A DNA stretch of 44,418 bases, taken from Bacteroidaceae bacterium (GTDB lineage: Bacteria > Bacteroidota > Bacteroidia > Bacteroidales > Bacteroidaceae). Made by a program: the position numbers and the translations under genes. The stretch lies in assembly GCA_017960825.1 (NCBI GenBank), contig JAGCYL010000005.1:1-44418 (forward strand). The letters run 5' to 3'. Each line of letters begins with the position of its first letter. The first letter of the stretch is position 1. Shown one piece after another: positions 5,253-33,303 of the stretch. The notes beneath the pieces were generated by a model that was not told the origin of the DNA, made no database searches, and was given only the letters and a program-made list of their open reading frames with translations.

Positions 5253-5834
5253 ATGAACAAAATCGTCTTTGCCACTAACAACGAGCATAAACTGCGTGAG
5301 ATTCGTGCCATTATCCACGACGGTACCGAGGTCTTAAGCCTCGCCGACATTGGCTGCCACGCCGATATCCCCGAGACTGCCGACACCCTTGAGGGCAACG
5401 CCCTGATAAAGGCGCACTATGTCTATGACAACTACGGCTATGACTGCTTTGCCGACGACACGGGACTGGAGGTAGAGGCTCTGGGCGGTGCCCCGGGCGT
5501 ACACACCGCACGCTATGCCGGCGATGACCAGGACTCGCAGGCCAATATGCGCAAGCTGCTTCTCGAGATGAGGGATGCCACCAATCGCAACGCCCGGTTC
5601 CGCACTGCCATAGCCCTGATTCTAAATGGCGGGGAGCACCTGTTCAGCGGCGAAGTGCGCGGCACCATCACCACCAAGCCATTGGGCACAAAAGGATTCG
5701 GCTACGACCCCGTATTCATTCCGGAAGACACAGGCAAGACCTTTGCGCAGCTGGGCGAGGATATTAAAAACCATATCAGCCATCGGGCCCGCGCCGTTAC
5801 CAAACTGATAGAATTCCTTCATAAAAACACCTGA
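5253..5834 (+). CDS. rdgB: non-canonical purine NTP pyrophosphatase (RdgB/HAM1 family)
   Basis: 193 aa. ATNNxHKLxEI, [18 protein letters not shown] and GFGYDP(V/I)F motifs are present. Confidence 0.9.
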
Positions 5835-5846
5835 TTACCTTTAATT

Positions 5847-8162
5847 ATGAGAAAAAGCATAGTCCTTCTGACCTTGGCCATTGCCCTCCCGCTCCTCGGC
5901 AGTGCCAGCGACTGGAAGTCGTATATCTCCTATCATAACGTCACTAGATGTCTGCCCGTAGATGGCAAAGTGTATGCCATCGGCTCCGGTGGCCTGTTCC
6001 GCTACACTTTTGGCAGCGACAAGGCTCAGACCTATAGCAAATCGACAGGACTGAGCAGCACCGACATCACCCACATAGCATACTGCGAAGACCTCGACCA
6101 GCTTCTGCTGGTCTATAAGGATTACAACATAGACATCCTTGACGTACACGACAGCATCATCAATATCCCGCAGTACAAAAACTCCTCCTACACCGACAAG
6201 ACCATCAACGATGTCACCATAAACGGCTCCACCGCCTATCTGGCCACAACCTTCGGCATCGTGGAAATCAACCTGCGCAAAGCCGAATACACCAACGCTT
6301 ACGAGACAGGCGTTCCCGTGCGATGCGCCATGGGCGACAAAGACAATATCTATGCCCTCGGCCCCGACGGCATCTATGCCGGCAACAGAAAAACCAACCT
6401 GCTCGACAAGACCAACTGGAGCAAGAAGAGCAACAGCTATATGCACAGGCTCATCGCCTTCAACGACAGCATCTTCGCCTTCAACAACAAAAACGGACTC
6501 TACTCCTTCAACACCACCACCTGCCAGACCGACAGGATATGCGAAGGCACCTTCACCCATTGCTCCACCTACGGAGAGGAAATCGTGCTGAGCAATGCCA
6601 CCACCGTCCTCACCATGGATGCCAAGCGCCATATCTCCACATACGCCTTAGACAATGACTTTCAAGACGTTGGCAGTGACGGCACCCATCTCTGGGCAGC
6701 GCGCGGCGACCTTGGCCTGCAAGCCTACATCGTCAGTGCCGACAGTCTCGGCAATGACAGTCTGATAGCAGCCGGAGGCAGCATCATTCCCAACAGCCCC
6801 CGGCGCAACTACTTCAACGACCTGCACCTCACCGACGACAACCGTCTGCTGGTGGCAGGCGGCGCCCTCAACTATAGCGGACAGACCTACTTTGAAGGAA
6901 CCCTGATGATTTTTGAGAACGGCAGCTGGTTTAACTTCAGCGAAGACAGCATCGCCATCAAGACCGATGCGCAGTATTCCAACATGACCTCGCTGGCACA
7001 GGACCCGAAGGACAAAAACCATCACTTTGCCTCCTCAGCCACCGCCGGACTCTATGAATACCGCAACGGCATCTTTGTCAATCTCTACAACAACGACAAC
7101 AGCCCTATCACTAGCATCTATCCCAAAAGGTCAAACTACAAAGTCTATAATCGCCTCTGTGGAGCCAAATATGATAACAAGGGCAATCTCTGGGTCTTCA
7201 ACAACCAAGTGGACACCATCATCCGCGTTATGAAGCCCGATATGACATGGGAGAGCTTCTACTTCCCTGAGATAAAGGCCTACCCAACCTTCGACCACTA
7301 TCTCTTTGACAGCCGTGGCTGGGTGTGGATGACTCACAGGCGCTGGGCAGGAGCAAACCTGGCAGGCATCGCATGCCTCAACTACAACAACACACTCTCC
7401 AGCAAAGGCGATGATAAATTTGCCTTCTGCACCACCTTCACCGACCAGAACGGCACCACTACGCAAATCAGTCTCCTCTACCATATCGCCTTCGACCGCA
7501 ACGGACAACTGTGGGTAGGCACAGACCAAGGAGTCTTTGTGCTGGAGAACCCTGCTACAATATTCGATAACAAGCAGACATTCCGCCGACCGCTCATCCC
7601 ACGTAACGATGGCACAAACTATGCCGACTACCTGCTCGATGGCGTACCTGTAAAGTGTATCGCAGTGGATGGCGCCAACCGCAAATGGCTGGGCACTACC
7701 AACAACGGCCTGTATCTCGTTTCAGAAGACGGGTTGCAGATAATAGAACACTTCACTGCTGACAACTCGCCGCTCCTGTCCGACTGTATCTTGTCGCTCG
7801 CACTGCGTCCTGACAACGGACTGCTGCTGATAGGCACCGACAAAGGCCTTGTCACATATCGCGGTGATGCCACCGAACCAACAGAAAAACTCAGCAAAAA
7901 CAATGTGAAGGTCTTCCCTAATCCTGTGAGACCCACATTCAACGGACAAATTCGCATCACAGGTCTCACGGCAGACAGCGATGTCAAGATAACCTCCACC
8001 AGCGGCCTGCTCATAGCACAGGGCACATCGCTCGGCGGCACCTTCGTATGGAATGGGCGCGACAAGGCAGGCGACCGTGTCTCCACTGGAGTCTATCATG
8101 TCATTGCCTCCGATGCAGAGGGCAAAAACGGCGTCGTAGCCAAGATACTTGTTGTGAAATAA
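5847..8162 (+). CDS. beta-propeller (two-component regulator propeller-like) protein with T9SS C-terminal sorting domain; PorZ-like
   Basis: 771 aa with a signal peptide, repeated propeller-type segments and a C-terminal ~80 aa (VKVFPNPV...GVYHVIASD...AKILVVK) typical of a Por secretion tail. Size and architecture match PorZ. The assignment is by architecture only. Confidence 0.6.
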   Translation: MRKSIVLLTLAIALPLLGSASDWKSYISYHNVTRCLPVDGKVYAIGSGGLFRYTFGSDKAQTYSKSTGLSSTDITHIAYCEDLDQLLLVYKDYNIDILDVHDSIINIPQYKNSSYTDKTINDVTINGSTAYLATTFGIVEINLRKAEYTNAYETGVPVRCAMGDKDNIYALGPDGIYAGNRKTNLLDKTNWSKKSNSYMHRLIAFNDSIFAFNNKNGLYSFNTTTCQTDRICEGTFTHCSTYGEEIVLSNATTVLTMDAKRHISTYALDNDFQDVGSDGTHLWAARGDLGLQAYIVSADSLGNDSLIAAGGSIIPNSPRRNYFNDLHLTDDNRLLVAGGALNYSGQTYFEGTLMIFENGSWFNFSEDSIAIKTDAQYSNMTSLAQDPKDKNHHFASSATAGLYEYRNGIFVNLYNNDNSPITSIYPKRSNYKVYNRLCGAKYDNKGNLWVFNNQVDTIIRVMKPDMTWESFYFPEIKAYPTFDHYLFDSRGWVWMTHRRWAGANLAGIACLNYNNTLSSKGDDKFAFCTTFTDQNGTTTQISLLYHIAFDRNGQLWVGTDQGVFVLENPATIFDNKQTFRRPLIPRNDGTNYADYLLDGVPVKCIAVDGANRKWLGTTNNGLYLVSEDGLQIIEHFTADNSPLLSDCILSLALRPDNGLLLIGTDKGLVTYRGDATEPTEKLSKNNVKVFPNPVRPTFNGQIRITGLTADSDVKITSTSGLLIAQGTSLGGTFVWNGRDKAGDRVSTGVYHVIASDAEGKNGVVAKILVVK

Positions 8163-8244
8163 ATAGTTGATTTCTTCGCAATTCGAAGCGTTGACAAAAT
8201 GATGGTCAAATCTTACATTGCACACATAATATAAAAAGAATAAT

Positions 8245-9534
8245 ATGAATTTTGTAGAAGAACTAAAATGGAGAGGCATGCTCCATCAAATCATGCCAGG
8301 CACAGAAGAGCAACTGGCAAAAGAGCCCACCACCGCCTACGTAGGCATCGACCCCACCGCCGACAGTCTCCACATCGGACACCTGTGCGGAGTAATGATG
8401 CTGCGCCATTTCCAGCGCTGCGGCCATAAGCCCCTTGCCCTCATCGGCGGCGCAACCGGCATGATAGGCGACCCCTCTGGCAAGAGCCAGGAGCGTAATC
8501 TGCTCGACGAAGCCACACTGCGCCACAATGTGGAGTGCATCAAGAAACAATTGGCACGCTTCCTTGACTTTGACAGCGATTCCCCCAACCGCGCAGAGCT
8601 GGTCAACAACTACGACTGGATGAAGGACTACACCTTCCTCGACTTTGCCCGCGAGGTCGGCAAGCATATCACCGTAAACTATATGATGGCCAAAGACTCC
8701 GTGCAGCGCCGACTGAACGGAGAAGCCAGCGACGGACTCAGTTTCACGGAGTTTACCTATCAACTCCTGCAGGGCTACGACTTTCTCTACCTCAACACCC
8801 ACCGCAACTGCAAACTGCAGATGGGCGGCTCTGACCAGTGGGGAAATATCACCACAGGCACCGAATTGATTCGCCGAACCACCGGCGCTGAGGCCTATGC
8901 CCTCACCTGCCCTCTCATCACCAAGAGCGATGGCCGCAAGTTTGGCAAGACAGAGAGCGGAAACGTTTGGCTTGACGCCAACCGCACCACACCCTACAAG
9001 TTCTATCAGTTCTGGCTCAATGTCACCGACGAAGATGCAGAACGCTACATCAAGATATTCACCTCTCTTAGCAAAGAAGAAATCGACTCGCTCGTTACCG
9101 AACACCGTGCCGACCCAGGCCGCCGCATTCTCCAAAAGCGACTTGGAGAAGAAGTCACCGTCATGGTCCATGGCCGTGCTGCCTATGAGACCGCCGTCGA
9201 GGCCAGCAACCTCCTCTTCGGCAAAGCCACCAAGGAGAGTCTGTTACACCTTGACGAAGCCACACTGCTCAGTGTCTTTGAGGGAGTGCCACAATATGAA
9301 TTGCCTACCGCCACTATCGTAGGTGCCAAGGCCGCAGACCTGCTCGCAGAGACCACCGATTGCTTCCCCTCCAAGGGTGAGTTCCGCAAGATGGTCAAAG
9401 GAGGAGGTGTCAGCGTCAACAAAGAGAAAATTGCTGATACTGAGTATTCCTTCTCTTCCAGCGACCTCATCGGCGGCAAATACCTCCTTGTGCAGAAAGG
9501 CAAAAAGAATTACTTCCTCTTTATTGCAAAATAA
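8245..9534 (+). CDS. tyrS: tyrosine--tRNA ligase
   Basis: 429 aa with a HIGH motif (LHIGH), KFGKT (KMSKS-like) and a C-terminal S4-like domain. Confidence 0.97.
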
Positions 9535-13747: not shown

Positions 13748-14386
13748 CTACAACTGACCGCTCTCTACCTTGCGCACTATCTTCTCTATCTCGCGGTCTT
13801 CGCCCTCAGGGTCATAATGCTTGCGCAAATTATTACCAAACAATGTACTGAGCACATTATACATGTTCGCCCTCACGGGGCCCAGAAATGCTTTTATCAT
13901 CTCAAAACTCGTCTGACCGCACTCGCGGTCTATCAGCTTTACCAGCAGCTTGCCCTGCGTCTTGGTTATCTTGCGCACCGTGGGCTCGTACTGCTTCCGT
14001 ATGCCGCGCTCCACTGCCTTGATATGCCGTTTCTTTTCCTTCTTGTCCTCCAGCGTCTCCAGATAGTCGTGGGTCTCTATGAGTATCTGGCGCGTCAGCT
14101 TGGCGTAAGGAAAGACATAGCGCACGTCGCGCACGAGTTTGTCGTACTTCTGTCGCTCTTTCTCGTTCTTGAATGTCTTTGGCGCTGTCTTGTAGAACTC
14201 ATGGAGTGTCATGTTGGGTATGCTGTCGCCCTGATACCACGCACGGTCTATCTTTACATACATAGCCACCTGGATGGTGTCGTCGGCCTGAGCCTTCAAT
14301 TCATTGAACATGGAAGATTGAACATTGAAGATTAGGAACAGCAAAAGGCACCGCCAGATTTGAAATATATATTGAACATTGAACAT
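13748..14386 (-). CDS. DUF4294 domain protein
   Basis: ORF 13748..14407. The C-terminal two thirds match the DUF4294 pattern as I remember it (RDVRYVFPYAKL..., KLIDRECGQTSFE). The start is uncertain: M1 at 14407, M8 at 14386 or M33 at 14311. M8 gives a signal-peptide-like N-terminus, and that N-terminus is encoded by the 14-nt repeats. Confidence 0.7.
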   Translation of the reverse strand: MFNVQYIFQIWRCLLLFLIFNVQSSMFNELKAQADDTIQVAMYVKIDRAWYQGDSIPNMTLHEFYKTAPKTFKNEKERQKYDKLVRDVRYVFPYAKLTRQILIETHDYLETLEDKKEKKRHIKAVERGIRKQYEPTVRKITKTQGKLLVKLIDRECGQTSFEMIKAFLGPVRANMYNVLSTLFGNNLRKHYDPEGEDREIEKIVRKVESGQL

Positions 14387-14420
14387 GGAAGATTGAACAT
14401 TATACATCTTACATTATACA
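14304..14420 (+). repeat. two blocks of 14-nt tandem repeats TTGAACAT[G/T]GAAGA (14304-14340 and 14372-14420)
   Basis: Block 1 is TTGAACATGGAAGA TTGAACATTGAAGA TTAGGAACA. Block 2 is TTGAACA TTGAACATGGAAGA TTGAACATTATACA TCTTACATTATACA. Confidence 0.8.
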
Positions 14421-14538
14421 TTGCCGCTTCGCGAGTGCAAAATTAGTAATTACATCTTATATTTTGCTTTTTCTTTTACTAATTTATCATAAAATTGTGG
14501 TAACTTCGCTCCCGGTATTTATTGTTATCTGTTTCTGT

Positions 14539-15066
14539 ATGCACAAACTGTCTGTTCTGGATATGAATCGCCTGAGCGCAGAAGAGTTCCGCCTGGCGAA
14601 GAAGGTTCCCCTTGTTATTGTGCTCGACAATGTAAGGAGCATGTATAACGTAGGTTCTGTTTTGCGCACCGCCGACGGCTTCCGCATTGAGAAGGTGTGT
14701 ATGTGCGGCATCACGGGGACTCCGCCTCATCAGGAGATTCACAAGACGGCTCTGGGGGCTGAAGACTGCGTGAACTGGGCTTACTACAAGAATACTGTAG
14801 ACTGCATCAATGACTTGCGCAAAGAGGGTTTTGTCATTGTTGCGCTGGAACAGGTGGAAGGAAGTAAAAATATGATGGATTGGGAAGACAGGCGTCCCAT
14901 GGCTATTATTGTGGGCAATGAGGTAAAGGGTGTGGCACAGGAAGTGGTAGACGCTGCCGACTACTGTCTGGAAATTCCGCAGATTGGTACCAAGCATTCT
15001 TTTAACGTTGCATGCGCTACTGCCATGGTTATGTGGGAATACTATAAGAGTTTTAATTACCCTTAA
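14539..15066 (+). CDS. TrmH/SpoU family RNA 2'-O-methyltransferase
   Basis: ORF 14464..15066. The conserved start MHKLSVLDMNRLSAEEF is at ATG 14539. SpoU motifs are present (VLDNVRSMYNVGSVLRTADGF, IVGNEVKGV, SFNVA). Confidence 0.85.
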   Translation: MHKLSVLDMNRLSAEEFRLAKKVPLVIVLDNVRSMYNVGSVLRTADGFRIEKVCMCGITGTPPHQEIHKTALGAEDCVNWAYYKNTVDCINDLRKEGFVIVALEQVEGSKNMMDWEDRRPMAIIVGNEVKGVAQEVVDAADYCLEIPQIGTKHSFNVACATAMVMWEYYKSFNYP

Positions 15067-15628
15067 CTGCAAAAAATAGCAGTTGATAATATTGCTTTTT
15101 GCTGTTGATAACTTGTGGAATTTGTTGTGAAATAATGCCAGTATAAAATCTTTATATTTTTCCACCATAATTCACATTATTTTTCTCCATTTCCTTCTAT
15201 GTTTTCAACATTCATTTTTATCAATTTCATAAATGAGATATTTTTTTGCTATTGCTTGTCTCTCTTGTTAACAGAAACTTTTTTGGTATTTTTAGGATAT
15301 GATAAATCAATCTTTTATGTTTTCAATACCTTGTGTATAAATTGTTGATAAAAATAGTGATTTTGTGAAAGGAATATTTATTATTTCGCGAATAAAAAAT
15401 TATAAACATTTTCCACAGCTATACATCAACAAACAGACAGACAAATAAAAAAAAAGTTTATATTTTTTTGAGAAGTAGTTAGTATTGATTTTTGCTGTGG
15501 AAAATAAAAGAAATATTTTTTTTATATAAATAATGCTTTTTTTGTTCTTTTTTGTTTGGAAATTCAATTATTAGTTTTAATTTTGGAGCAAATTTGAATT
15601 TTTGTTAAACTTTTAAATTATTAGAATT
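15067..15628. other. AT-rich gene-free region with a DnaA-box cluster; candidate chromosomal replication origin (oriC)
   Basis: Three boxes match TTWTNCACA exactly: 15332-15340 (TGTGTATAA, minus-strand sense TTATACACA), 15409-15417 (TTTTCCACA) and 15496-15504 (TGTGGAAAA, minus-strand sense TTTTCCACA). One-mismatch boxes lie at 15103-15111, 15126-15134, 15158-15166, 15168-15176 and 15343-15351. Long A/T tracts run at 15440-15470 and 15505-15560. Confidence 0.5.
15578..15585 (+). promoter_or_regulatory. candidate -7 box TAATTTTG for the zinc-ribbon gene
   Basis: Exact TAnnTTTG match 44 nt upstream of ATG 15629. Confidence 0.4.
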
Positions 15629-16375
15629 ATGGCTTTTTGTTCAAAATGTGGTCAGCAAATTGCTGACGGAGTAACAGTATGCCCATTCTGTGGCGAACCC
15701 ATTGAGGCAGCTCCTGCTGCAGCTCCCAGGACTCCGGTCTATGACAATGCACCTGAGCAGCTTGACTTCATTCCGAGTGCTGCTTCTGCTGCATTCCCGA
15801 AGTTTGCTTACATCGGTATTGCCGGTGCGGTGTTAGCTTTGATTGTTTCTTTCTTTAATGTATTTGAAACACCTAGACTTTACTACTTCCTTTATGCAGT
15901 AGCTGCAGCATGTTCAGCAGTTGCAATGTTCAAGGTTTATGATGGTCTGAAGAAAGGTCTTGCCGGTCACAGGAAACCGATGCCCGGTTTGATTACTACT
16001 ACAGCATGGTTCCAGGTAGCAGGTCAGGCACTTATGGTATTAGGTGGTCTGATTGTAATCCTTGCAGGTCTTGACGGTGTTGCAACAGCAGCAGGTATCA
16101 TAGTATTTGCAGGAGTTATAAATTTTGTATATCTGATTCTGATGCTTATTGTAGCCTTCACTTTGATAGGAAGCTACACAGGTAATGTAAAGACCTTCGG
16201 ATGGTTGCTGGTTATCCCTGTAATCTTCGGTATTATTGCAGCTATTGGTGGTGGTGCAGCAGCATTGTCAGGTGGCAAGGTAGGCGTGATTACTATAATC
16301 ATTGCAGTAATAAGCTGCGCAATCAGTGTTTACATCTATCTGTTTGCCAAGAAGATTATCAGCGACGGGAAATAA
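15629..16375 (+). CDS. zinc-ribbon domain multi-pass membrane protein (hypothetical)
   Basis: 248 aa. The N-terminal CxxC..CxxC (MAFCSKCGQQIADGVTVCPFCGEPI) is followed by about 6 hydrophobic helices. Confidence 0.75.
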   Translation: MAFCSKCGQQIADGVTVCPFCGEPIEAAPAAAPRTPVYDNAPEQLDFIPSAASAAFPKFAYIGIAGAVLALIVSFFNVFETPRLYYFLYAVAAACSAVAMFKVYDGLKKGLAGHRKPMPGLITTTAWFQVAGQALMVLGGLIVILAGLDGVATAAGIIVFAGVINFVYLILMLIVAFTLIGSYTGNVKTFGWLLVIPVIFGIIAAIGGGAAALSGGKVGVITIIIAVISCAISVYIYLFAKKIISDGK

Positions 16376-23467: not shown

Positions 23468-23760
23468 GTCTAGGGGGAGCAATCCCGAGACCGAAGAAGC
23501 GTTCCGCGTTTTATCCTTTACAGTGAAATCTGGTATATTTCTTAGAGAAGGATGAAGATGATGGTTCACTTCCTGTATGTGACTGTGTGCATACGGCCCA
23601 CCTACGCCGTAATGCTGCGGCATATACGGCGTAGGTGATATCTCTATTCATTTCTCGAAGGTTTACCAGAGCCCACTGTAAGATGAGTAAGGACAAATCC
23701 CTACGTCTTTTTCGTGCGCCAATATTAACACCTGATTGGGGATTGCGGGAAGGAATAATT
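23468..23760 (+). ncRNA. candidate structured 5' leader or small RNA (unclassified)
   Basis: It lies downstream of a promoter-like box. GGGA-GCAA-TCCC is a GNRA hairpin (23474-23485). ATCCTT/AAGGAT forms a stem (23511-23516 / 23548-23553). A very stable hairpin pairs CACCTACGCCGTA(23599-23611) with TACGGCGTAGGTG(23625-23637), with an inner ATGC/GCAT pairing. An embedded 28-codon ORF runs 23552-23638. Confidence 0.3.
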
Positions 23761-23763
23761 TTT

Positions 23764-24366
23764 ATGTGCAAAGAAAAACTCCCTTCATTTATGTGGGATA
23801 ACTCTGAGAATGATGGTCATGCCGAAACTATCATGGACTATGTTATCTCATGGTGTCTACGCGTTGCAGCAAATGATTTTTGTAGTAAATATAAGCCTAA
23901 ATTATACCATTACTGTAAGTTTCTTCTTTTTAAGTTGCTCCAAATAGAAGAAAACACTGACCAGATTGTCCTTGAGGAAGTAAAGGTGTGGAAGCAGTGG
24001 AAACGTATAGATTTATGGGTAGAAGTAATACTTATAAACAACGGACAAAAAGAAAATCATTCCATTCTCATTGAAAACAAGTACTATACACTTACACATG
24101 ACAGAAGAGATATAGACGGCACTTATAAGAATCAGTTGGAGGTGTATAAAAATATTTTTGATGATTTTTATGCCCAGGATAACAACAGAAAGAAACACTA
24201 TGCTCTTATCACATGTTTAGATAATTATCCTGATAAAGAAAAGATACAGAAACTAGGCTATCAACTGTATACATACAGTGCTCTAAAGGATGAGATGGCA
24301 AATAACGCTGGAAATGTTGAACCTTCTGAAAGCGACATTTTTAACGAGTTTTGGATAAATTGGTAA
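23764..24366 (+). CDS. PD-(D/E)XK nuclease superfamily protein
   Basis: ORF 23635..24366. The start is probably ATG 23764 (MCKEKLPSF...), where composition turns AT-rich. The D...(E/Q)xK-type core reads RIDLWVEV...ILIENKYY. Confidence 0.65.
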   Translation: MCKEKLPSFMWDNSENDGHAETIMDYVISWCLRVAANDFCSKYKPKLYHYCKFLLFKLLQIEENTDQIVLEEVKVWKQWKRIDLWVEVILINNGQKENHSILIENKYYTLTHDRRDIDGTYKNQLEVYKNIFDDFYAQDNNRKKHYALITCLDNYPDKEKIQKLGYQLYTYSALKDEMANNAGNVEPSESDIFNEFWINW

Positions 24367-24388
24367 AGAAAAAACAATATTAAAAAAA

Positions 24389-25486
24389 ATGATCATGAAA
24401 AATTTCTTTGTAATAACTGTATGTTTGTTTTTATGCCGTTGCGCTAATTTTAGTGACAAAATTTCTTTTGAAGATTTACTTTCTATGTATAAAAGTAAGG
24501 ACTTTACTTATATAAACAACACTGTAACCGCAAAAGGTTATATATTTCGAGAAAGCATAGAAGGAAAATCTGTCTGGACCAAAAATCTGGATTATGATTA
24601 TAATACGCATGAGGATATTCACCCTACGGAGAATCCTGAAGAGACTGCGCAAACTGTTAATTTTAAGGAGTGCTTTCTTATTAACTATAGTGAAGAACAG
24701 TTAAGCTTGACATGTTACGACTACAATGGACTAGATACTCTTTTCTCTGAAATCAAAGCAGCGGGATATGTGCTAAAAGAAAGAAGGGAGGATCCTAATT
24801 TAGTTGAAGGAACTTTTTCTGTTTTCCAAAAGGAAGGAATGCCAACAGTTAATACATTACTAAGTCCACTGTTTCCTCAGACTTCTGAAATTTTAATAGG
24901 AAATAACTCCGACGCTCTTTTAAGCAATAACGATTGCATAGATGAAGTTGAAAGATGGAGTTTTAAAGCTGAGCAGCCTAACGGATGGGCTACTCTAAAA
25001 GTATTCTTGAATAATGATGCCGTCTTTTATAATGACGAAAATACAGATTTCTACGAAAGTCGTGCTCCTCTTTTATGGATGGCATGTAACCTCTATGCTT
25101 CTTTATATAGTTCTGCTCTAGGCGACAGTATATATGGAAAACAGGTGACACAAAATGCAAAAGAAGCTATGGTTTATGCCAACGATAATATGTTTTTAAT
25201 AAATAATCTTCCCCTAGAAAATTCCTCTATTTCAACAGAAGCAGAAGAGATAGCGCAACGAACCTTCTATGACAATCGTACAGATTACGATTACGGCGCG
25301 ACAGAATGGAAAAGAAGTTATGGACGGATAACATATATTATTGGAGAAGAAACACATCCTCGCATGGACTACTACTGGGGAGAAAAACAATATTTTAACA
25401 TTATTAAGATATGGAGAGGAAAAGATAATTATATGTATTGTCAGAAAGGAATTCTTTCATTGGAAGACTACAAAAGAGGTAGATAA
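24389..25486 (+). CDS. hypothetical protein with N-terminal signal/anchor segment
   Basis: 365 aa and AT-rich. The N-terminal hydrophobic segment is FFVITVCLFLCRC. I recognise no domain. It starts 22 nt after the nuclease gene. Confidence 0.65.
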   Translation: MIMKNFFVITVCLFLCRCANFSDKISFEDLLSMYKSKDFTYINNTVTAKGYIFRESIEGKSVWTKNLDYDYNTHEDIHPTENPEETAQTVNFKECFLINYSEEQLSLTCYDYNGLDTLFSEIKAAGYVLKERREDPNLVEGTFSVFQKEGMPTVNTLLSPLFPQTSEILIGNNSDALLSNNDCIDEVERWSFKAEQPNGWATLKVFLNNDAVFYNDENTDFYESRAPLLWMACNLYASLYSSALGDSIYGKQVTQNAKEAMVYANDNMFLINNLPLENSSISTEAEEIAQRTFYDNRTDYDYGATEWKRSYGRITYIIGEETHPRMDYYWGEKQYFNIIKIWRGKDNYMYCQKGILSLEDYKRGR

Positions 25487-25595
25487 GTAAATTTTTACCC
25501 TCTTTATGAAATTCTCTCCAAATGTAAAATAACTGAGAATTCTATGTCTGTCATAATCTTTAATGGAAGTAGCGATCAGTAACAAGCTTCCCGCA

Positions 25596-25638
25596 GAAAT
25601 AGCAGGGAAATTCCGCGAAGGAGTTTCCCTGCTATTTC
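25596..25638 (+). terminator. perfect 15-bp stem hairpin (possible terminator)
   Basis: GAAATAGCAGGGAAA (25596-25610) pairs with TTTCCCTGCTATTTC (25624-25638) across a 13-nt loop. The downstream U-run is weak. Confidence 0.5.
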
Positions 25639-25787
25639 TTATGAAAAAAATTATTTTCGATTCTTCCTCCATACTTCCATAATCCAGTGGAAAATTAATG
25701 TTCATCAGCATTTGCAGTGTGAAAGCAATGGTGGAAGACATGGAGGCAAATGCCCGAAAAAGACAGATAGCAGCAAAAAAATCATTA

Positions 25788-25819
25788 ATTACACATTTTG
25801 TGTTACACATTTGTGTAAT
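25788..25819. promoter_or_regulatory. operator-like dyad / tandem 13-14-bp repeat overlapping the -33 region
   Basis: Sequence is ATTACACATTTTGTG TTACACATTTGTGTAAT. The ends ATTACACA/TGTGTAAT are complementary. The outer arms AAAATCATT (25777-25785) and AATGATTTT (25823-25831) extend the dyad. Confidence 0.4.
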
Positions 25820-25833
25820 CAAAATGATTTTTG

Positions 25834-25841
25834 TAATTTTG
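25834..25841 (+). promoter_or_regulatory. candidate -7 box TAATTTTG for the T9SS cargo gene
   Basis: Exact TAnnTTTG(CAGCG) match 37 nt upstream of ATG 25878. A TTTG at 25810-25813 sits at -33 spacing. Confidence 0.45.
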
Positions 25842-25877
25842 CAGCGCAAAATTTACACTATTATAAACAAATTCACA

Positions 25878-28853
25878 ATGAGAAAATTTCAAACGAAGAA
25901 ATTGTCTTTTTTCCTGCTACTCCTACTCATAGGATTGAGCACTACCCATGCACAAACCTACACGAAGTGGAAGCAGGTACAAGACCCTACTGCGCTTAGC
26001 ACTAACGATGTAGTGGTCATTGTCGATCTGACCACCGCTAATGCCATGCGTAACAATCCTGAATATGAAGGAGAGAACACGGTCAGTAAAGCTGCTCCTC
26101 CTGCCCTGAAAGTGACGTTGAAGGAGGAGTTGGATCGCATCACCAGCGAAGTTGGCGACACTATCGTCTGGACAGCTGACCGCACGGACAGTAAGTATGT
26201 GTTCAAATCCCTGTACGATCAGAATAAGGGCAACACTCGTTATCTGTTCAATTCTGACCAAAACCTCCGCGTAGGCTATGTCAGCAGCAACGATGCTTGG
26301 AAAAGCAAGTTCGACCTGGACAAAGGATTGCTGTTCATGGGACATGTGGAAGTTGGCGAGAATCAATATAAAGACTACCACATTGGCATGAAGGTTGCCA
26401 GCGGCATACAGGCTATGATGAGTGGTAGCACATGGGAGCTGATGGCAGACTCGGTAGATACTAATGATCCAAGTATTACACACGTCAACAAAGAAATTGC
26501 CGCCACGAAGATAGCTTTCTTCAAGAAGGTGGAGACAACATTGCCCGACCCTACGCTGCAGTTCCCAGACCATGACTATGAGGCAGATGTCCAGAATCCA
26601 AGTTCTTTCGTGTCGCCCGTTGCCACGGCTGAAGATGGGGCAGGGACTATCACCTATTATAGCGGAAATACAGATTTGGCCGAGGTGGATGCAACAACAG
26701 GCGTTGTGACGGTGAAGAAGCGCGGTACGGTGCGCATTTATGCTCAGGTGACAGCAACAGAAAGTTATGATGATTACCTTACGTCGTATGTGTTGCGCAT
26801 CGATGATAGTGAGGCGGCCGGTGGGCGAAACAATCCCTTCACCGTTGCCCAGGCTATTGCCTACGCAAAGGCGGAAGGTCATGAAGAAGAAAAAGCCAAC
26901 GGTGTCTGCTACTTTGTCAAGGGTATCGTCTCGAGCGTAGGCGGTGCCATGGCTGGTATGGAAGACATGGGAGACATGATGTCTATGATGTCAGGTATGA
27001 TGGAAGGCATGGGAGGTACGGAAGGCTTCGACATGAGCTCCATGATGAGCATGTTCATGGGCGAACAAGAGCCTGGCACGGTGACCTATGCCATCAGCGA
27101 CAATGGTGTGAACCGCGACTCGCTCTCGGTCAACAACGGCCGTGGCATGCTGTTGGAAAACAAACTGGTTGACATCACTTCAGACTCTCTCAGCGTAGGC
27201 GACTGGGTGACAGTGTATGGTCCGTTGGATTATTCAGAAGATAATGACATGATGTCGATGTTTGGCGGTGGCAACAAGGAGAAGACAGTGAAGATGCCAC
27301 GCATCAACTACATGCGGGAACATAAGCGTAACCTTATTACCAATGACATCGTGCTGTACTTCGGTCAGACAAGACAAAGCAACCAACTCTTCAGCATCAC
27401 CGATATGTTTGACGGCACGCTGGTTACAAATACTAATGCAACGGACAGCTCCAAGCCCAAGACCTCCATCAAACCAAGCGATACTGGCATAGCCAGTTGG
27501 ATGGTTGAAGGTGCTGACAGTCTGCTGACTCCAAAGAAGTCAGGTATCATCACAGTGACAGTTAACGCACCTGTTATGCTTGCACCCGGCGACACTGTTA
27601 AGATGAAGCGTAAGTTCACGCTTGACGTGAGAGATCGCCTGCTGCTGCCTGCTGGAACAATGGAAGGTAACTACGAATTGGTAACCAACGCCAGCCAGTT
27701 GCAGCCTAACGACAAGTTGCTCATCGTGGCTACGATAGACGATAAGTCAAAGGTGCTCAATAGAAATATTGGTGCAAGTGGCAACAGCGACAGCAGCAAC
27801 CCGATGATGTCAATGTTAGGAGGCGGCAGCAATGCCAGCAATGTCACTATAGACGGTGATGGCAAGATAACTCAGGTACCTGATGATGCGCTGATACTGA
27901 CTCTGGAGCAGTACGGCGACAAGTGGCTGCTGCAGACAGGCAGAACCACCGACTACGAGATGACCTATCTCTACGTTTCCGACACCGATGACGGCGGCGG
28001 CAGCATGATACCCGGCATGGGTAGCAACGGTGCCAGCCTGAAGACCGGAACACGCGGTGCAGTCGTTGACAGCTGCCAGGTGGCGTTCACCTTCTATTCT
28101 GAAAAGAACGACAGCGTAAAGATGCAGTTCAACTTCCAGGACCGCACAAAAGACGAGAAAACCGTCACGGCGAAAAATGTCATCCGCTATGAGAAGGGCA
28201 CAATGTCAACATCATTCGGAGGCTTTGAACCTGAGTCCGATAAGGCAACTCTGCCACGTCTTTACCGCTTGGTACAGGCAGACCAATACACCGTTACGGT
28301 TAGCAATGCCCTGTGGGCAACTATTGTCAGCTCATACGATGTGACATTGCCTGAAGGACTGGCAGGCTACGCAGTGAAGGAGATAGACAACGATAAAGCT
28401 ATTCTGCAAGAAATAGCAGACGAAGGCGGACTGAAAGCCGGCAAACCCTATCTGCTGAAAGCCACCAGCGCAGGTATCTATACGCTGGACAAGGCAAACA
28501 CTGACGTAACAGAACCAGACGTCAATCTGCTGGCGGTGAGCGATGACCAAACGACAAGCGGCGTTTACGTACTGGCCAACGCAAGCAAGGGAGCAGGGTT
28601 CTATAAATGGACAGGCGGACTGCTGGGAGCAGGGCGTGTTTATCTGCAGACGAATGGAACCAGTTTGTCACCGGCCATGCTGCAATTTGAGTTTGGGGAT
28701 ACTGACGATGATGTAACCCAGGTGGCAAGCGTTGAGACCAGCGATGCCGTAGAGGAGCAGAGTTGGTACACTCTCAGCGGAGTGAAGCTCCCCACCCAGC
28801 CTACGGCCAAGGGTATTTATATCCGCAATGGCAAGAAAGTGATAGTTAAATAA
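25878..28853 (+). CDS. T9SS-secreted multidomain surface protein with Big_2-like domain and Met-rich loops
   Basis: ORF 25698..28853. The real start is MRKFQTKKLSFFLLLLLIGLSTTHAQ at ATG 25878 (signal peptide). It has a Big_2-like segment (GTITYYSGNTDLAEVDATTGVVTVKKRGTVRIYA) and the C-terminal sorting tail SWYTLSGVKL...GIYIRNGKKVIVK. Confidence 0.85.
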   Translation: MRKFQTKKLSFFLLLLLIGLSTTHAQTYTKWKQVQDPTALSTNDVVVIVDLTTANAMRNNPEYEGENTVSKAAPPALKVTLKEELDRITSEVGDTIVWTADRTDSKYVFKSLYDQNKGNTRYLFNSDQNLRVGYVSSNDAWKSKFDLDKGLLFMGHVEVGENQYKDYHIGMKVASGIQAMMSGSTWELMADSVDTNDPSITHVNKEIAATKIAFFKKVETTLPDPTLQFPDHDYEADVQNPSSFVSPVATAEDGAGTITYYSGNTDLAEVDATTGVVTVKKRGTVRIYAQVTATESYDDYLTSYVLRIDDSEAAGGRNNPFTVAQAIAYAKAEGHEEEKANGVCYFVKGIVSSVGGAMAGMEDMGDMMSMMSGMMEGMGGTEGFDMSSMMSMFMGEQEPGTVTYAISDNGVNRDSLSVNNGRGMLLENKLVDITSDSLSVGDWVTVYGPLDYSEDNDMMSMFGGGNKEKTVKMPRINYMREHKRNLITNDIVLYFGQTRQSNQLFSITDMFDGTLVTNTNATDSSKPKTSIKPSDTGIASWMVEGADSLLTPKKSGIITVTVNAPVMLAPGDTVKMKRKFTLDVRDRLLLPAGTMEGNYELVTNASQLQPNDKLLIVATIDDKSKVLNRNIGASGNSDSSNPMMSMLGGGSNASNVTIDGDGKITQVPDDALILTLEQYGDKWLLQTGRTTDYEMTYLYVSDTDDGGGSMIPGMGSNGASLKTGTRGAVVDSCQVAFTFYSEKNDSVKMQFNFQDRTKDEKTVTAKNVIRYEKGTMSTSFGGFEPESDKATLPRLYRLVQADQYTVTVSNALWATIVSSYDVTLPEGLAGYAVKEIDNDKAILQEIADEGGLKAGKPYLLKATSAGIYTLDKANTDVTEPDVNLLAVSDDQTTSGVYVLANASKGAGFYKWTGGLLGAGRVYLQTNGTSLSPAMLQFEFGDTDDDVTQVASVETSDAVEEQSWYTLSGVKLPTQPTAKGIYIRNGKKVIVK

Positions 28854-31389: not shown

Positions 31390-33261
31390 GTGCTTTTTTA
31401 TTACGACATAGTGGTAATTGGTGCCGGCCACGCAGGGTGCGAGGCTGCTCGCGCCGCGGCTATGCGCGGTATGCGCGTGTGCCTTATCACTATGGATTTG
31501 GAGAAGGTGGCGCAGATGAGCTGCAACCCTGCTATTGGCGGTATTGCCAAGGGCCAGATAGTGAGGGAGATAGATGCGCTGGGAGGAATGACGGGGCAGA
31601 TTACCGACCGCACAGCTATACAGTTTCGCATGCTCAATCTATCCAAAGGCCCTGCTATGTGGAGCCCGCGGGCGCAGTGCGACAGAGGACGCTTCAGCGC
31701 CGAGTGGCGCAAGGTGCTCGAAAACACTGACAATCTCACCCTATGGCAGGATCAGGTCGTAGAACTTCTCGTGGAAGACGACTGCGCTATTGGAGTCAAA
31801 ACGCTGTGGAACAATGAGTTTAGGGCTCAATGCGTCATTCTCACCGCAGGAACTTTCCTTAATGGCTTGATGCACTTAGGACACGTCAAGGTGAAGGGAG
31901 GGCGCCTCTCAGAGCCTGCCAGCCTGCACCTCTCGGAGTCAATAGCCAAGCATGGTATCAGGGTGGACCGCATGAAGACCGGCACGCCGCTGAGACTCGA
32001 TGCTCGTAGTATCGATTTCAGCAAACTGACAAGGCAGGATGGTGATAGCGGATGGCATCGCTTTTCGTTTGTGAGCGAGCGGCGCGAATTGCCGCAGATC
32101 CCTTGCTGGATATGCAACACCAATGAGGCTGCCCACGAAGTGCTACGCGGTGGACTGAACGACTCCCCTCTCTACAACGGTCAGATACAAAGCATTGGGC
32201 CGCGCTATTGTCCAAGTATAGAAACTAAACTCCACACTTTCCCCGACCGTGACCATCATCCGCTCTTCCTCGAACCAGAGGGATTGGACACTAATATGCT
32301 TTACCTCAACGGTTTCTCCTCCAGCCTCCCACTCGAAGTACAGTTGAAGGCAGTAAGGCAAATACCGGGGTTCGAACAGGCTCGCATCTTCCGTCCAGGT
32401 TATGCTATAGAGTATGATTTCTTCGATCCTACAGAACTGAATCACTCGTTGGAATCAAAGAAAATCAGCAATCTTTTCCTTGCAGGCCAGGTGAACGGCA
32501 CTACCGGCTATGAGGAGGCTGCCGGCCAGGGACTCGTGGCAGGAATAAATGCTTCACTCAAGTGTGAAGGGCGTGAACCTTTTACAATGGGACGTGATGA
32601 GAGTTATATAGGTGTGCTTATTGATGACCTTATAACCAAGGGCGTGGACGAACCGTATCGTATGTTTACTTCGCGTGCGGAGTATCGCATATTGCTGCGG
32701 CAGGACAATGCCGATGCACGGCTGACGCCCAAGGGTCACAAGCTGGGGTTGATTGATGACGAGAGATACGAGGTATTCCTGCACAAACAGGAGGCTATCG
32801 CTAGAATTGTTGCTTTCTGCAATGATTATATCGTCAAACCGGGCGAGATAGACCAATATCTCAGTTCTGTGGGCAGTAATCCTGTGTCTGTCGCCAGTAA
32901 ACTGAGCACTATAATCAGCAGACCCGATGTCGACCTCGTTTCTGTTGCGCAGGCAGTGGAGTTGCTGGGAAAGGAGGTCAGCTCTATTAACTATCGTAAA
33001 GAAGAGGTGCTGGAGTCGGCCGAGATAGCAATCAAATACGACGGATATATTCGTCGAGAAGAGCAGGAGGCTCAGAAGATGCACCGACTGGAGTCTATCC
33101 GTATAAAGGACAGGTTTGACTACTCCCAAATTGTGCAGATTTCTACCGAAGGCCGCCAGAAACTGGCGCGCCTTAACCCCGAAACTTTGGGACAGGCATC
33201 GCGTATTCCCGGAGTCAGTCCGAGTGACATAAACGTGCTGCTAGTGCTGCTCCATCGGTGA
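31390..33261 (+). CDS. mnmG: tRNA uridine-5-carboxymethylaminomethyl(34) synthesis enzyme MnmG (GidA)
   Basis: 623 aa with a GTG start. The FAD motif YDIVVIGAGHAGCEAA is present and the sequence is GidA-like throughout. Confidence 0.96.
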   Translation: MLFYYDIVVIGAGHAGCEAARAAAMRGMRVCLITMDLEKVAQMSCNPAIGGIAKGQIVREIDALGGMTGQITDRTAIQFRMLNLSKGPAMWSPRAQCDRGRFSAEWRKVLENTDNLTLWQDQVVELLVEDDCAIGVKTLWNNEFRAQCVILTAGTFLNGLMHLGHVKVKGGRLSEPASLHLSESIAKHGIRVDRMKTGTPLRLDARSIDFSKLTRQDGDSGWHRFSFVSERRELPQIPCWICNTNEAAHEVLRGGLNDSPLYNGQIQSIGPRYCPSIETKLHTFPDRDHHPLFLEPEGLDTNMLYLNGFSSSLPLEVQLKAVRQIPGFEQARIFRPGYAIEYDFFDPTELNHSLESKKISNLFLAGQVNGTTGYEEAAGQGLVAGINASLKCEGREPFTMGRDESYIGVLIDDLITKGVDEPYRMFTSRAEYRILLRQDNADARLTPKGHKLGLIDDERYEVFLHKQEAIARIVAFCNDYIVKPGEIDQYLSSVGSNPVSVASKLSTIISRPDVDLVSVAQAVELLGKEVSSINYRKEEVLESAEIAIKYDGYIRREEQEAQKMHRLESIRIKDRFDYSQIVQISTEGRQKLARLNPETLGQASRIPGVSPSDINVLLVLLHR

Positions 33262-33303
33262 AACACTCCCTATGTTTCACGTGAAACACAAAGAATGTTT
33301 CAC
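33258..33303. promoter_or_regulatory. parS (ParB/Spo0J binding site) with flanking half-sites
   Basis: The core at 33273-33288 is TGTTTCACGTGAAACA, a perfect 16-bp palindrome identical to the chromosomal parS consensus. Half-sites GTGAAACA (33258-33265) and TGTTTCAC (33296-33303) each lie 7 bp away. Confidence 0.75.

Follow-up and report, generated by a model that had tools for sequence, protein, structure and literature searches.

A candidate chromosomal replication origin of Bacteroidales type, with a rearranged layout, in the AT-rich gap beside spoU of an uncultured bacterium

We analysed a 44,418-nt stretch of DNA (the window) from an uncultured Bacteroidales bacterium of the gut or rumen, and in particular the 562-bp intergenic region at positions 15067-15628 (the gap), which separates a SpoU/TrmH-family methyltransferase gene (spoU) from the gene of a zinc-ribbon membrane protein. 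Judged from its sequence and from its relatives, the gap very probably contains the chromosomal origin of replication (oriC), of the Bacteroidales type but with a rearranged local layout. The window comes from an ordinary stretch of a Bacteroidota chromosome, with housekeeping genes on both flanks of the gap. A first-pass annotation of the window had singled out the gap as its most AT-rich part, and this was borne out: no intergenic region of the window is longer than the gap, which has a GC content of 22.4% and is the lowest-GC stretch of its length (0.22, the next lowest 562-bp stretch having 0.295).

The gap is rich in DnaA-box-like sites. Three of the nine exact matches to the relaxed consensus TTWTNCACA in the window fall in it, at 15332 (minus), 15409 (plus) and 15496 (minus), exactly as the first-pass annotation had listed them. 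When up to one mismatch to TTATCCACA was allowed, 5 of the 21 sites in the window lay in the gap (15103, 15332 and 15343, minus; 15409, plus; 15496, minus). Since AT-rich DNA inflates box counts, the expectation was computed from 3000 shuffles of the gap itself, at 22.4% GC. Five boxes with at most one mismatch were seen where 0.18-0.20 were expected, and none of the 3000 shuffles reached five; for the relaxed consensus, three were seen where 0.10-0.18 were expected (P ≤ 0.0007), so that the earlier rough estimate of well under 0.1-0.2 exact boxes by chance was right. The gap thus holds a non-coding cluster of DnaA boxes well above chance, as looked for in an oriC. No open reading frame (ORF) of at least 60 aa lies wholly inside the gap, its smaller ORFs bear no sign of being genes, and scans of the window with Rfam (gathering thresholds) and for tRNAs gave no match; a hidden gene or RNA in the gap was rejected on these results. 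Terminator-like sites were not found in the gap, and its matches to sigma-70-type promoters were at background level.

About ten DnaA-box-like sites lie between 15081 and 15504, and their order and orientation are conserved. From left to right there are three sites on the minus strand, one or two on the plus strand, four on the minus strand, an abutting pair on the plus strand, an AT-rich spacer of 78 bp and a last box on the minus strand. The features are as follows.

15067 to 15628, no strand: the whole gap, from spoU to the zinc-ribbon membrane protein gene, with the candidate oriC at about 15081-15535 and the next gene's promoter.
15103 to 15134, minus strand: tandem array of three co-oriented sites, TGTTGATAA at 15103, TGTGGAATT at 15114 and TGTGAAATA at 15126, spaced 11-12 bp and pointing towards spoU.
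15158 to 15176, plus strand: box-like sites TTTTCCACC at 15158 and TAATTCACA at 15168, on the strand opposite to the arrays.
15266 to 15274, minus strand: degenerate box TGTTAACAG; the aligned site in L001 is the one-mismatch box TGTGGAAAA.
15332 to 15372, minus strand: second co-oriented array, TGTGTATAA at 15332, TGTTGATAA at 15343 and TGTGAAAGG at 15364, with spacings of 11 and 21 bp and two one-mismatch boxes.
15400 to 15417, plus strand: abutting co-oriented box pair TTATAAACA and TTTTCCACA, followed by GC, pointing rightwards into the spacer and kept in three lineages.
15418 to 15495, no strand: AT-rich 78-bp spacer, the proposed DNA-unwinding element, between the convergent boxes 15409 and 15496; its core 15443-15469 is 96% A/T.
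15496 to 15504, minus strand: box TGTGGAAAA with one mismatch, closing the spacer and convergent with box 15409.

That boxes 15332 and 15343 are co-oriented and start 11 bp apart had already been noted in the first pass and held.

The first-pass annotation had suggested asking whether the box cluster is kept in the same gap of related genomes. We compared three lineages: the window, L081 with L090 (SpoU 80% identical) and L001 with L083, L084 and L089 (SpoU 76% identical); two further contigs, L086 and L087, belong to the same species and are nearly identical to the window. The gene order nadA (minus), radical-SAM gene (minus), the gene of a 692-aa protein (minus), DUF4294 gene (minus), spoU (plus), gap and zinc-ribbon gene (plus) is common to all three. 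In the alignment of the gaps, islands of conservation stand at 15103, 15114, 15126, 15158, 15266, 15332, 15343, 15364, 15400, 15409 and 15496, and most of the aligned sites are a box with zero or one mismatch in at least one lineage. Across the five boxes defined in the window, 76% of positions are invariant in the three lineages, compared with 32% elsewhere in the gap (Fisher P 2e-8), and the cluster is thus kept. The position of the first array is retained as a perfect TGTGGATAA in L081 and as TGTGGAAAA with three more TGTG/TGTT sites in L001; tandem arrays of two to four boxes at 11-12 bp spacing also adjoin spoU in the relatives. At 15158 the three lineages read TTTTCCACC, TTTTCCACT and TTATCCACC. 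All three positions of the second array are kept, as TGTGAATTA, TGTTGATAA and TGTGGATTA in L081 and as TGTTGATAA, TGTTGGTAA and TGTTGACAA in L001, and the site homologous to box 15496 is a perfect TGTGGATAA in L001 and AGTGGAAAA in L081. Separately, the origin gap of L001 (2170-2290; also of L083 and L084) carries a GC-rich palindromic insert of about 120 bp, CCCCCTCTATCTTAGAGGGGG ... CCCCCTCTAAGATAGAGGGGG; it looks like a small mobile repeat, and in one contig a further 15 nt are duplicated.

The likeliest unwinding site, on these sequences, would be the 78-bp spacer between boxes 15409 and 15496. In the window, L001 and L081 alike it measures exactly 78 nt, at an ungapped identity of 45-53% (35% in shuffles), unlike the remainder of the gap, which is full of insertions and deletions among the three lineages. 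Because this length is fixed despite the divergence, we take the spacer as the putative unwinding element. It holds one of the least stable 30-mers of the gap, its core 15443-15469 ranking among the weakest stretches, and the very least stable 30-mer, 15503-15532, lies just outside the spacer. For a box read as TTATCCACA, the orientation rule places the unwinding region on its 3' side, and by this rule both flanking elements, the pair 15400-15417 and box 15496, face the spacer. This rule agrees with the oriC of Escherichia coli, where the 13-mers lie 5' of the R1 box TGTGGATAA (the sequence used matched 5420 E. coli genomes), and it was also checked against the arrangement of Clostridioides difficile, 5'-CACCTACTACTATTACTACTATGA-3'. 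Published tables of boxes and DnaA-trios write the boxes and then the trios 3'-to-5' on one strand (PMC8287927), in line with the rule.

Two statements of the first-pass annotation about this part of the gap had to be amended. The 11-nt arms TTTTCCACAGC and GCTGTGGAAAA do bracket 74 bp, but the bracketed DNA, described as almost pure A/T, contains 20% GC, and only the 27-bp core 15443-15469 is nearly pure A/T. An unwinding element had also been seen in the tracts at 15505-15560. These are not a good candidate: box 15496 faces away from them, and on their right they reach into the next gene's promoter, since about 15552-15628 would be the promoter and leader of that gene and overlaps the end of the tract. 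This last feature is the following.

15552 to 15628, plus strand: predicted promoter and 5' leader for the gene of the zinc-ribbon protein; the motifs, of Bacteroides type, are TTTG at -33 and TAATTTTG at -7.

The motifs were read by eye against the Bacteroides promoter consensus. Region 15552-15628 is 87% identical to L081 and 71% to L001, compared with 46-49% for the non-box parts of the gap, and from this conservation together with the -33 and -7 motifs we read it as the promoter and leader of the zinc-ribbon gene; so read, it is not part of the unwinding element. The leader itself (15552-15628 in the window, 5040-5112 in L081) is better conserved across species than the rest of the gap, which suggests a conserved regulatory leader.

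The surroundings of the gap agree with an origin. To its left the window carries leuS, yitT, rdgB, a gene for a PorZ-type type IX secretion protein, tyrS, nadA, the radical-SAM gene, the gene of the 692-aa protein, the DUF4294 gene and spoU; to its right, beyond the zinc-ribbon gene, lie dapB, lepB, ychF, lgt, mnmG, uvrC, dtd, deoC, polA, ispB and dprA. The genes and sites that matter here are these.

14539 to 15066, plus strand: SpoU/TrmH-family RNA 2'-O-methyltransferase gene (Pfam SpoU_methylase, E 4.5e-34), a conserved origin neighbour in Bacteroidales.
15629 to 16375, plus strand: zinc-ribbon membrane protein gene, the right-hand neighbour of the gap.
31390 to 33261: mnmG (TIGR00136, E 1e-239).
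33273 to 33288, no strand: perfect parS TGTTTCACGTGAAACA between mnmG and uvrC, an exact match (0.12 expected) and an origin-proximal marker.

Origin-linked markers are therefore near, with parS and mnmG about 17 kb from the gap and spoU adjoining it. The genes dnaA and dnaN are not in the 44-kb window. This is no objection, because oriC commonly lies far from dnaA in Bacteroidetes (PMC4755523). The genes between 9621 and about 14386 point left, and those between 14539 and 36641 point right; the coding-strand switch (at about 14387-14539), mnmG and the perfect parS of the first-pass annotation were all present, and the consecutive plus-strand genes up to 36641, which it had put at more than 20, number about 18.

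The GC skew changes sign at the locus. Plus-strand genes left of the gap (5253-9534) have a skew of -0.08 to -0.18 and those to its right a mean of +0.11; of the three minus-strand genes on the right, two are still positive, and the mean of the three is +0.02. The switch is of the replication type and is not a by-product of gene strand. The same switch was seen in L089 and L090, within about 1 kb of the gap as in the window, and in L089 the skew of the left flank is still negative even though that flank consists of unrelated plus-strand genes.

We then considered the wider Bacteroidales, for which a scan of species-representative genomes yielded 80 loci around spoU orthologues. The usual layout is nadA (minus), gap, spoU (plus), DUF4294 gene (minus), 692-aa protein gene (plus) and radical-SAM gene (plus), and a few loci have spoU (plus), gap and nadA (plus). 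In 31 relatives with an AT-rich gap next to spoU, one-mismatch boxes occurred at 5.63 per kb, compared with 0.41 in the flanks; the variants enriched there, TTATCCACA, TTATCAACA and TTTTCCACA, cover four of the five boxes of the window. Of the 26 loci with nadA (minus) and spoU (plus) and enough flank, 23 show a skew that turns from negative to positive at the gap (P 7e-7). A conserved core adjoins nadA and consists of a T/A-rich tract, TATGATGATGATAG, GC, TGTTGATAG-TGTTGATAAC, then CTTGC and AAGTTAT. A profile of this canonical core, built from 27 relatives, matched 33 of the 80 loci (E 1e-3 to 1e-18), 32 of them within about 450 bp upstream of spoU and one at about 3 kb (L036). The same core string is tabulated as a box-plus-trio unit of the predicted origin DoriC ORI93030288 of Prevotella ruminicola 23 (PMC8287927 supplement), and that element is identical at 39 of 45 positions to L019 and L052. 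Because the core matches ORI93030288, the cluster beside spoU is what current databases call oriC in this group. In the literature we found nothing explicit on a link between nadA/spoU and oriC in Bacteroides, the supplementary tables of Ori-Finder 2022 available as text do not mention Bacteroidetes, and no experimentally dissected oriC of Bacteroidales was found in the searchable literature.

Several features of the relatives' origins were observed in passing. In the core upstream of spoU in loci L003-L080 (for example L021 5525-5627 and L052 5601-5700) a trinucleotide-periodic run is 5'-GAT-3' when written on the strand that shows the boxes as TGTTGATAA. The run is thus 3'-TAG-5' and not the 3'-GAT-5' consensus of Firmicutes; its polarity is different, although the loose 3'-NAN-5' rule accepts it. 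Six loci (L005, L019, L052, L053, L059 and L069; for example L019 5762-5852) share a second conserved module of Prevotella-type origins, in which TTATCCACA and a convergent GTGGAAA box stand exactly 54 nt apart with GGTGCAAAATTAATAAGTTTATATCTTTTT between them. At 5330-5700 of L069, from a Prevotellaceae genome, GC-rich repeats GGTACGGGGGTGCGGGGGTACG together with three to four copies of GGGTGTGAAAAATGCTTCATCA enlarge the origin gap.

The relation of the window to the canonical core was followed by direct alignment, in which the pair 15400-15417, GC and TATACATCAACAA are set against the canonical double box, GCC and TATCATCATCAA (TATCATCATCA in relatives). The likeness extends over the double box and some 13 nt beyond, and no further. 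The pair 15400-15417 probably corresponds to the double box that stands by the unwinding region in canonical Bacteroidales origins, and, taken from the spoU side, the succession of box orientations (- - - + - ...) mirrors the one in the relatives. We infer that the gap is the same origin after a local rearrangement, now 3' of spoU, with nadA 4.4 kb off and the periodic run decayed. Since no profile match was significant, this homology rests on motif order, one alignment and gene order.

Support for an oriC in the gap comes from the enrichment of boxes, their conservation, the skew switch in three lineages, the clusters adjacent to spoU and the DoriC core, but a number of results weigh against it. 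The gap has no perfect TTATCCACA box, while two stand elsewhere in the window, in polA. The canonical-core profile has no significant match in the window, L081 or L001 (on the gap alone its best match is 15392-15419, at the pair 15400-15417, with E 0.35), and the profile of the convergent-box module of Prevotella (TTATCCACA, GGTGCAAAATTAATAAGTTTATATCTTTTT, GTGGAAA) has no match in the window; the shared 16-mer AAGTTTATATTTTTTT may be due to chance. Under the published trio rule (PMC8287927), a DnaA box must have three or more 3'-NAN-5' trinucleotides in succession no further than 16 bp away, on the strand that carries the box as TGTGGATAA. Neither box flanking the spacer has such a run: none comes after box 15409, and the run GAT-GAA-GAG at box 15496 begins 17 nt from it. 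As for the skew, its cumulative minimum is at 14.1 kb, about 1 kb left of the gap and beyond spoU, and spoU itself has a skew of +0.19 although it lies left of the gap, which would put the switch in 14387-14538. The skew was moreover read from 44 kb of the replicon, whose global minimum could lie elsewhere.

Some of these points can be examined further. The only formal trio hits in the gap are T-runs after the weak boxes 15158, 15168 and 15202 (4 seen and 1.16 expected, P 0.03). The run GAG-AAG-TAG / TAG-TAT left of 15496 was considered and set aside, because it misses the required spacing by 1 nt and neither L081 nor L001 conserves it. We accordingly do not claim a canonical basal unwinding system in the gap. 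The coding strand of spoU orthologues has a mean skew of +0.13 in 80 genomes; the skew of spoU is thus largely intrinsic, and one 528-bp gene cannot decide between the two gaps that flank it. The other gap, 14387-14538, was rejected as the origin: although closer to the skew minimum, it is free of boxes and resembles a divergent promoter pair.

How the origin might work can be proposed from the arrangement of its sites. DnaA-ATP would occupy the stronger boxes 15103, 15332, 15343, 15409 and 15496, and weaker neighbours would be filled cooperatively. The pair 15400-15417 and the opposing box 15496 would direct DnaA oligomers onto the spacer, where the duplex would open first at the 27-bp A/T core 15443-15469; the helicase would be loaded at the opened core, and forks would depart both ways. 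The arrays 15103-15134 and 15332-15372 would then be DnaA-loading or regulatory sites, and the final 80 bp or so of the gap would serve only as the promoter of the next gene. In the clade of the window the origin would have come to lie 3' of spoU, nadA would have been lost as a neighbour and the trinucleotide run by the double box would have decayed. A bolder version, which we regard as a rather doubtful possibility, is that this is a remodelled origin in which the periodic run has been lost and unwinding depends on two facing DnaA-box sites across a spacer of exactly 78 bp, with assemblies converging from both sides. Given the fixed 54-bp convergent pair of the Prevotella-type relatives, such a pair could on this version be a general, undescribed second module of Bacteroidales origins.

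The closest known systems are the predicted origins of Prevotella and Bacteroides (DoriC ORI93030288 of P. ruminicola 23; Prevotella intermedia OMA14, Ori-Finder). Like these, the candidate has its box cluster in AT-rich intergenic DNA where the GC skew switches, well away from dnaA (PMC4755523). It also shares with them the methyltransferase gene on its flank, the box variants TTATCAACA and TTTTCCACA, and two abutting boxes that precede GC and an A/T-rich tract. It differs from most relatives, whose origin lies in the divergent nadA-spoU gap 5' of spoU, in that the origin of the window, L081 and L001 is 3' of spoU, with the zinc-ribbon gene opposite and nadA 4.4 kb away; the core (TATGATGATGATAG-SC-TGTTGATAG-TGTTGATAAC) is also too diverged in the window for a profile search. 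Like the oriC of E. coli, which lies in the mnmG (gidA)-mioC gap, it is not beside dnaA, has the unwinding element on the side to which the flanking box (R1 type, TGTGGATAA) points, and has co-oriented arrays of strong and weak boxes at helical-turn spacing. Unlike in E. coli, mnmG is 16 kb away and not adjoining, there are no 13-mer repeats, and the proposed unwinding element is boxed on both sides; GATC clustering was not seen, no search aimed at it having been made. The basal system of Bacillus subtilis and C. difficile consists of two co-oriented boxes, a GC cluster, DnaA-trios 3'-GAT-5' and an AT-rich tract. The abutting boxes 15400 and 15409, the short GC spacer and the A/T-rich tract in the pointing direction resemble it, and relatives of the window keep a clear trinucleotide-periodic run after the double box. 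In the window, however, this run is broken (TATACATCAACAA), so that there is no run of at least three trios within 16 nt of either flanking box; the origin is not beside dnaA, and the window offers no second box cluster that would point to a bipartite origin. Plasmids carrying oriC of Cytophaga hutchinsonii (Bacteroidota) show that chromosomal oriC fragments of this phylum can replicate autonomously (PMC5288383); that species belongs to a different order, and the likeness is one at the level of the phylum.

Three other explanations of the gap were weighed. The one that survives best, though we hold it to be improbable, is a regulatory or titration locus that binds DnaA, either datA- or DARS-like or a DnaA-controlled promoter of the zinc-ribbon/lipoprotein operon, with the true oriC nearby or elsewhere. 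The strongly conserved promoter and leader in the gap, the lack of a canonical trio run, the core profile without a significant match and the skew minimum about 1 kb away would all fit such a locus; about ten ordered sites over 420 bp and a spacer of fixed length exceed the needs of a regulated promoter, however, the skew switches at the locus in three lineages, the neighbouring 14387-14538 is free of boxes, and in relatives the spoU-adjacent cluster is the DoriC-type origin. Somewhat less probable still is a decaying relic, in which initiation would have moved elsewhere after a rearrangement split nadA from spoU and only leftover boxes remain. While the degenerate state of the canonical (GAT)n and double-box core in the window, L081 and L001 and the lack of a perfect box in the gap are as expected of a relic, the box positions are under clear purifying selection in three lineages, the 78-nt spacer length is strictly kept, and the skew switch, which would erode if no forks started there, persists in all three. 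The least probable reading, a chance cluster of boxes in an AT-rich and possibly horizontally acquired spacer, or an integrated plasmid or mobile-element origin, could appeal to the many near-matches that AT-rich DNA yields (about 2.5 two-mismatch sites are already expected per gap) but is largely refuted by the composition-matched shuffles, none of which reached the observed count, by the conservation of gap, sites and gene order in other species, by the lack of a plasmid match and of rep or mobilisation genes, and by the housekeeping genes on its flanks.

Three observations were made elsewhere in the window. Near the 5' end of polA (36742-39567, minus), a span of 515 bp holds the only two perfect TTATCCACA boxes of the window (38996, plus; 39501, minus) and a one-mismatch box (39120, minus). 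About 0.3 perfect boxes would be expected in 44 kb; the cluster may reflect DnaA-linked control of polA, or chance. At 14303-14416, at the 5' end of the DUF4294 gene and beside the divergent promoter region, there are three overlapping repeats of about 32 nt (ATTGAACATGGAAGATTGAACATT...) that encode a repeated NVQSSMFN in the predicted N-terminus, the start codon being uncertain (14227, 14386 or 14407). Finally, 23500-26000 is a low-GC island (30-36% GC, compared with about 50% elsewhere), whose ORFs 23635-24366 and 24389-25486 have no Pfam match and a third-codon-position GC of 0.28-0.35, and which was probably acquired horizontally.

An oriC is an expected, essential feature of any bacterial chromosome, and tools of the Ori-Finder type would probably flag this gap. 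A known origin lets the replichores of this metagenome-assembled genome be oriented, and growth rate be read from coverage (peak-to-trough). For Bacteroidales more widely, the SpoU/TrmH-type methyltransferase gene, usually paired with nadA, offers a practical marker of the origin. Together with the conserved core and the fixed-length spacer bracketed by boxes, this marker gene could guide work on DnaA binding and unwinding and the construction of oriC plasmids for Prevotella and Bacteroides.

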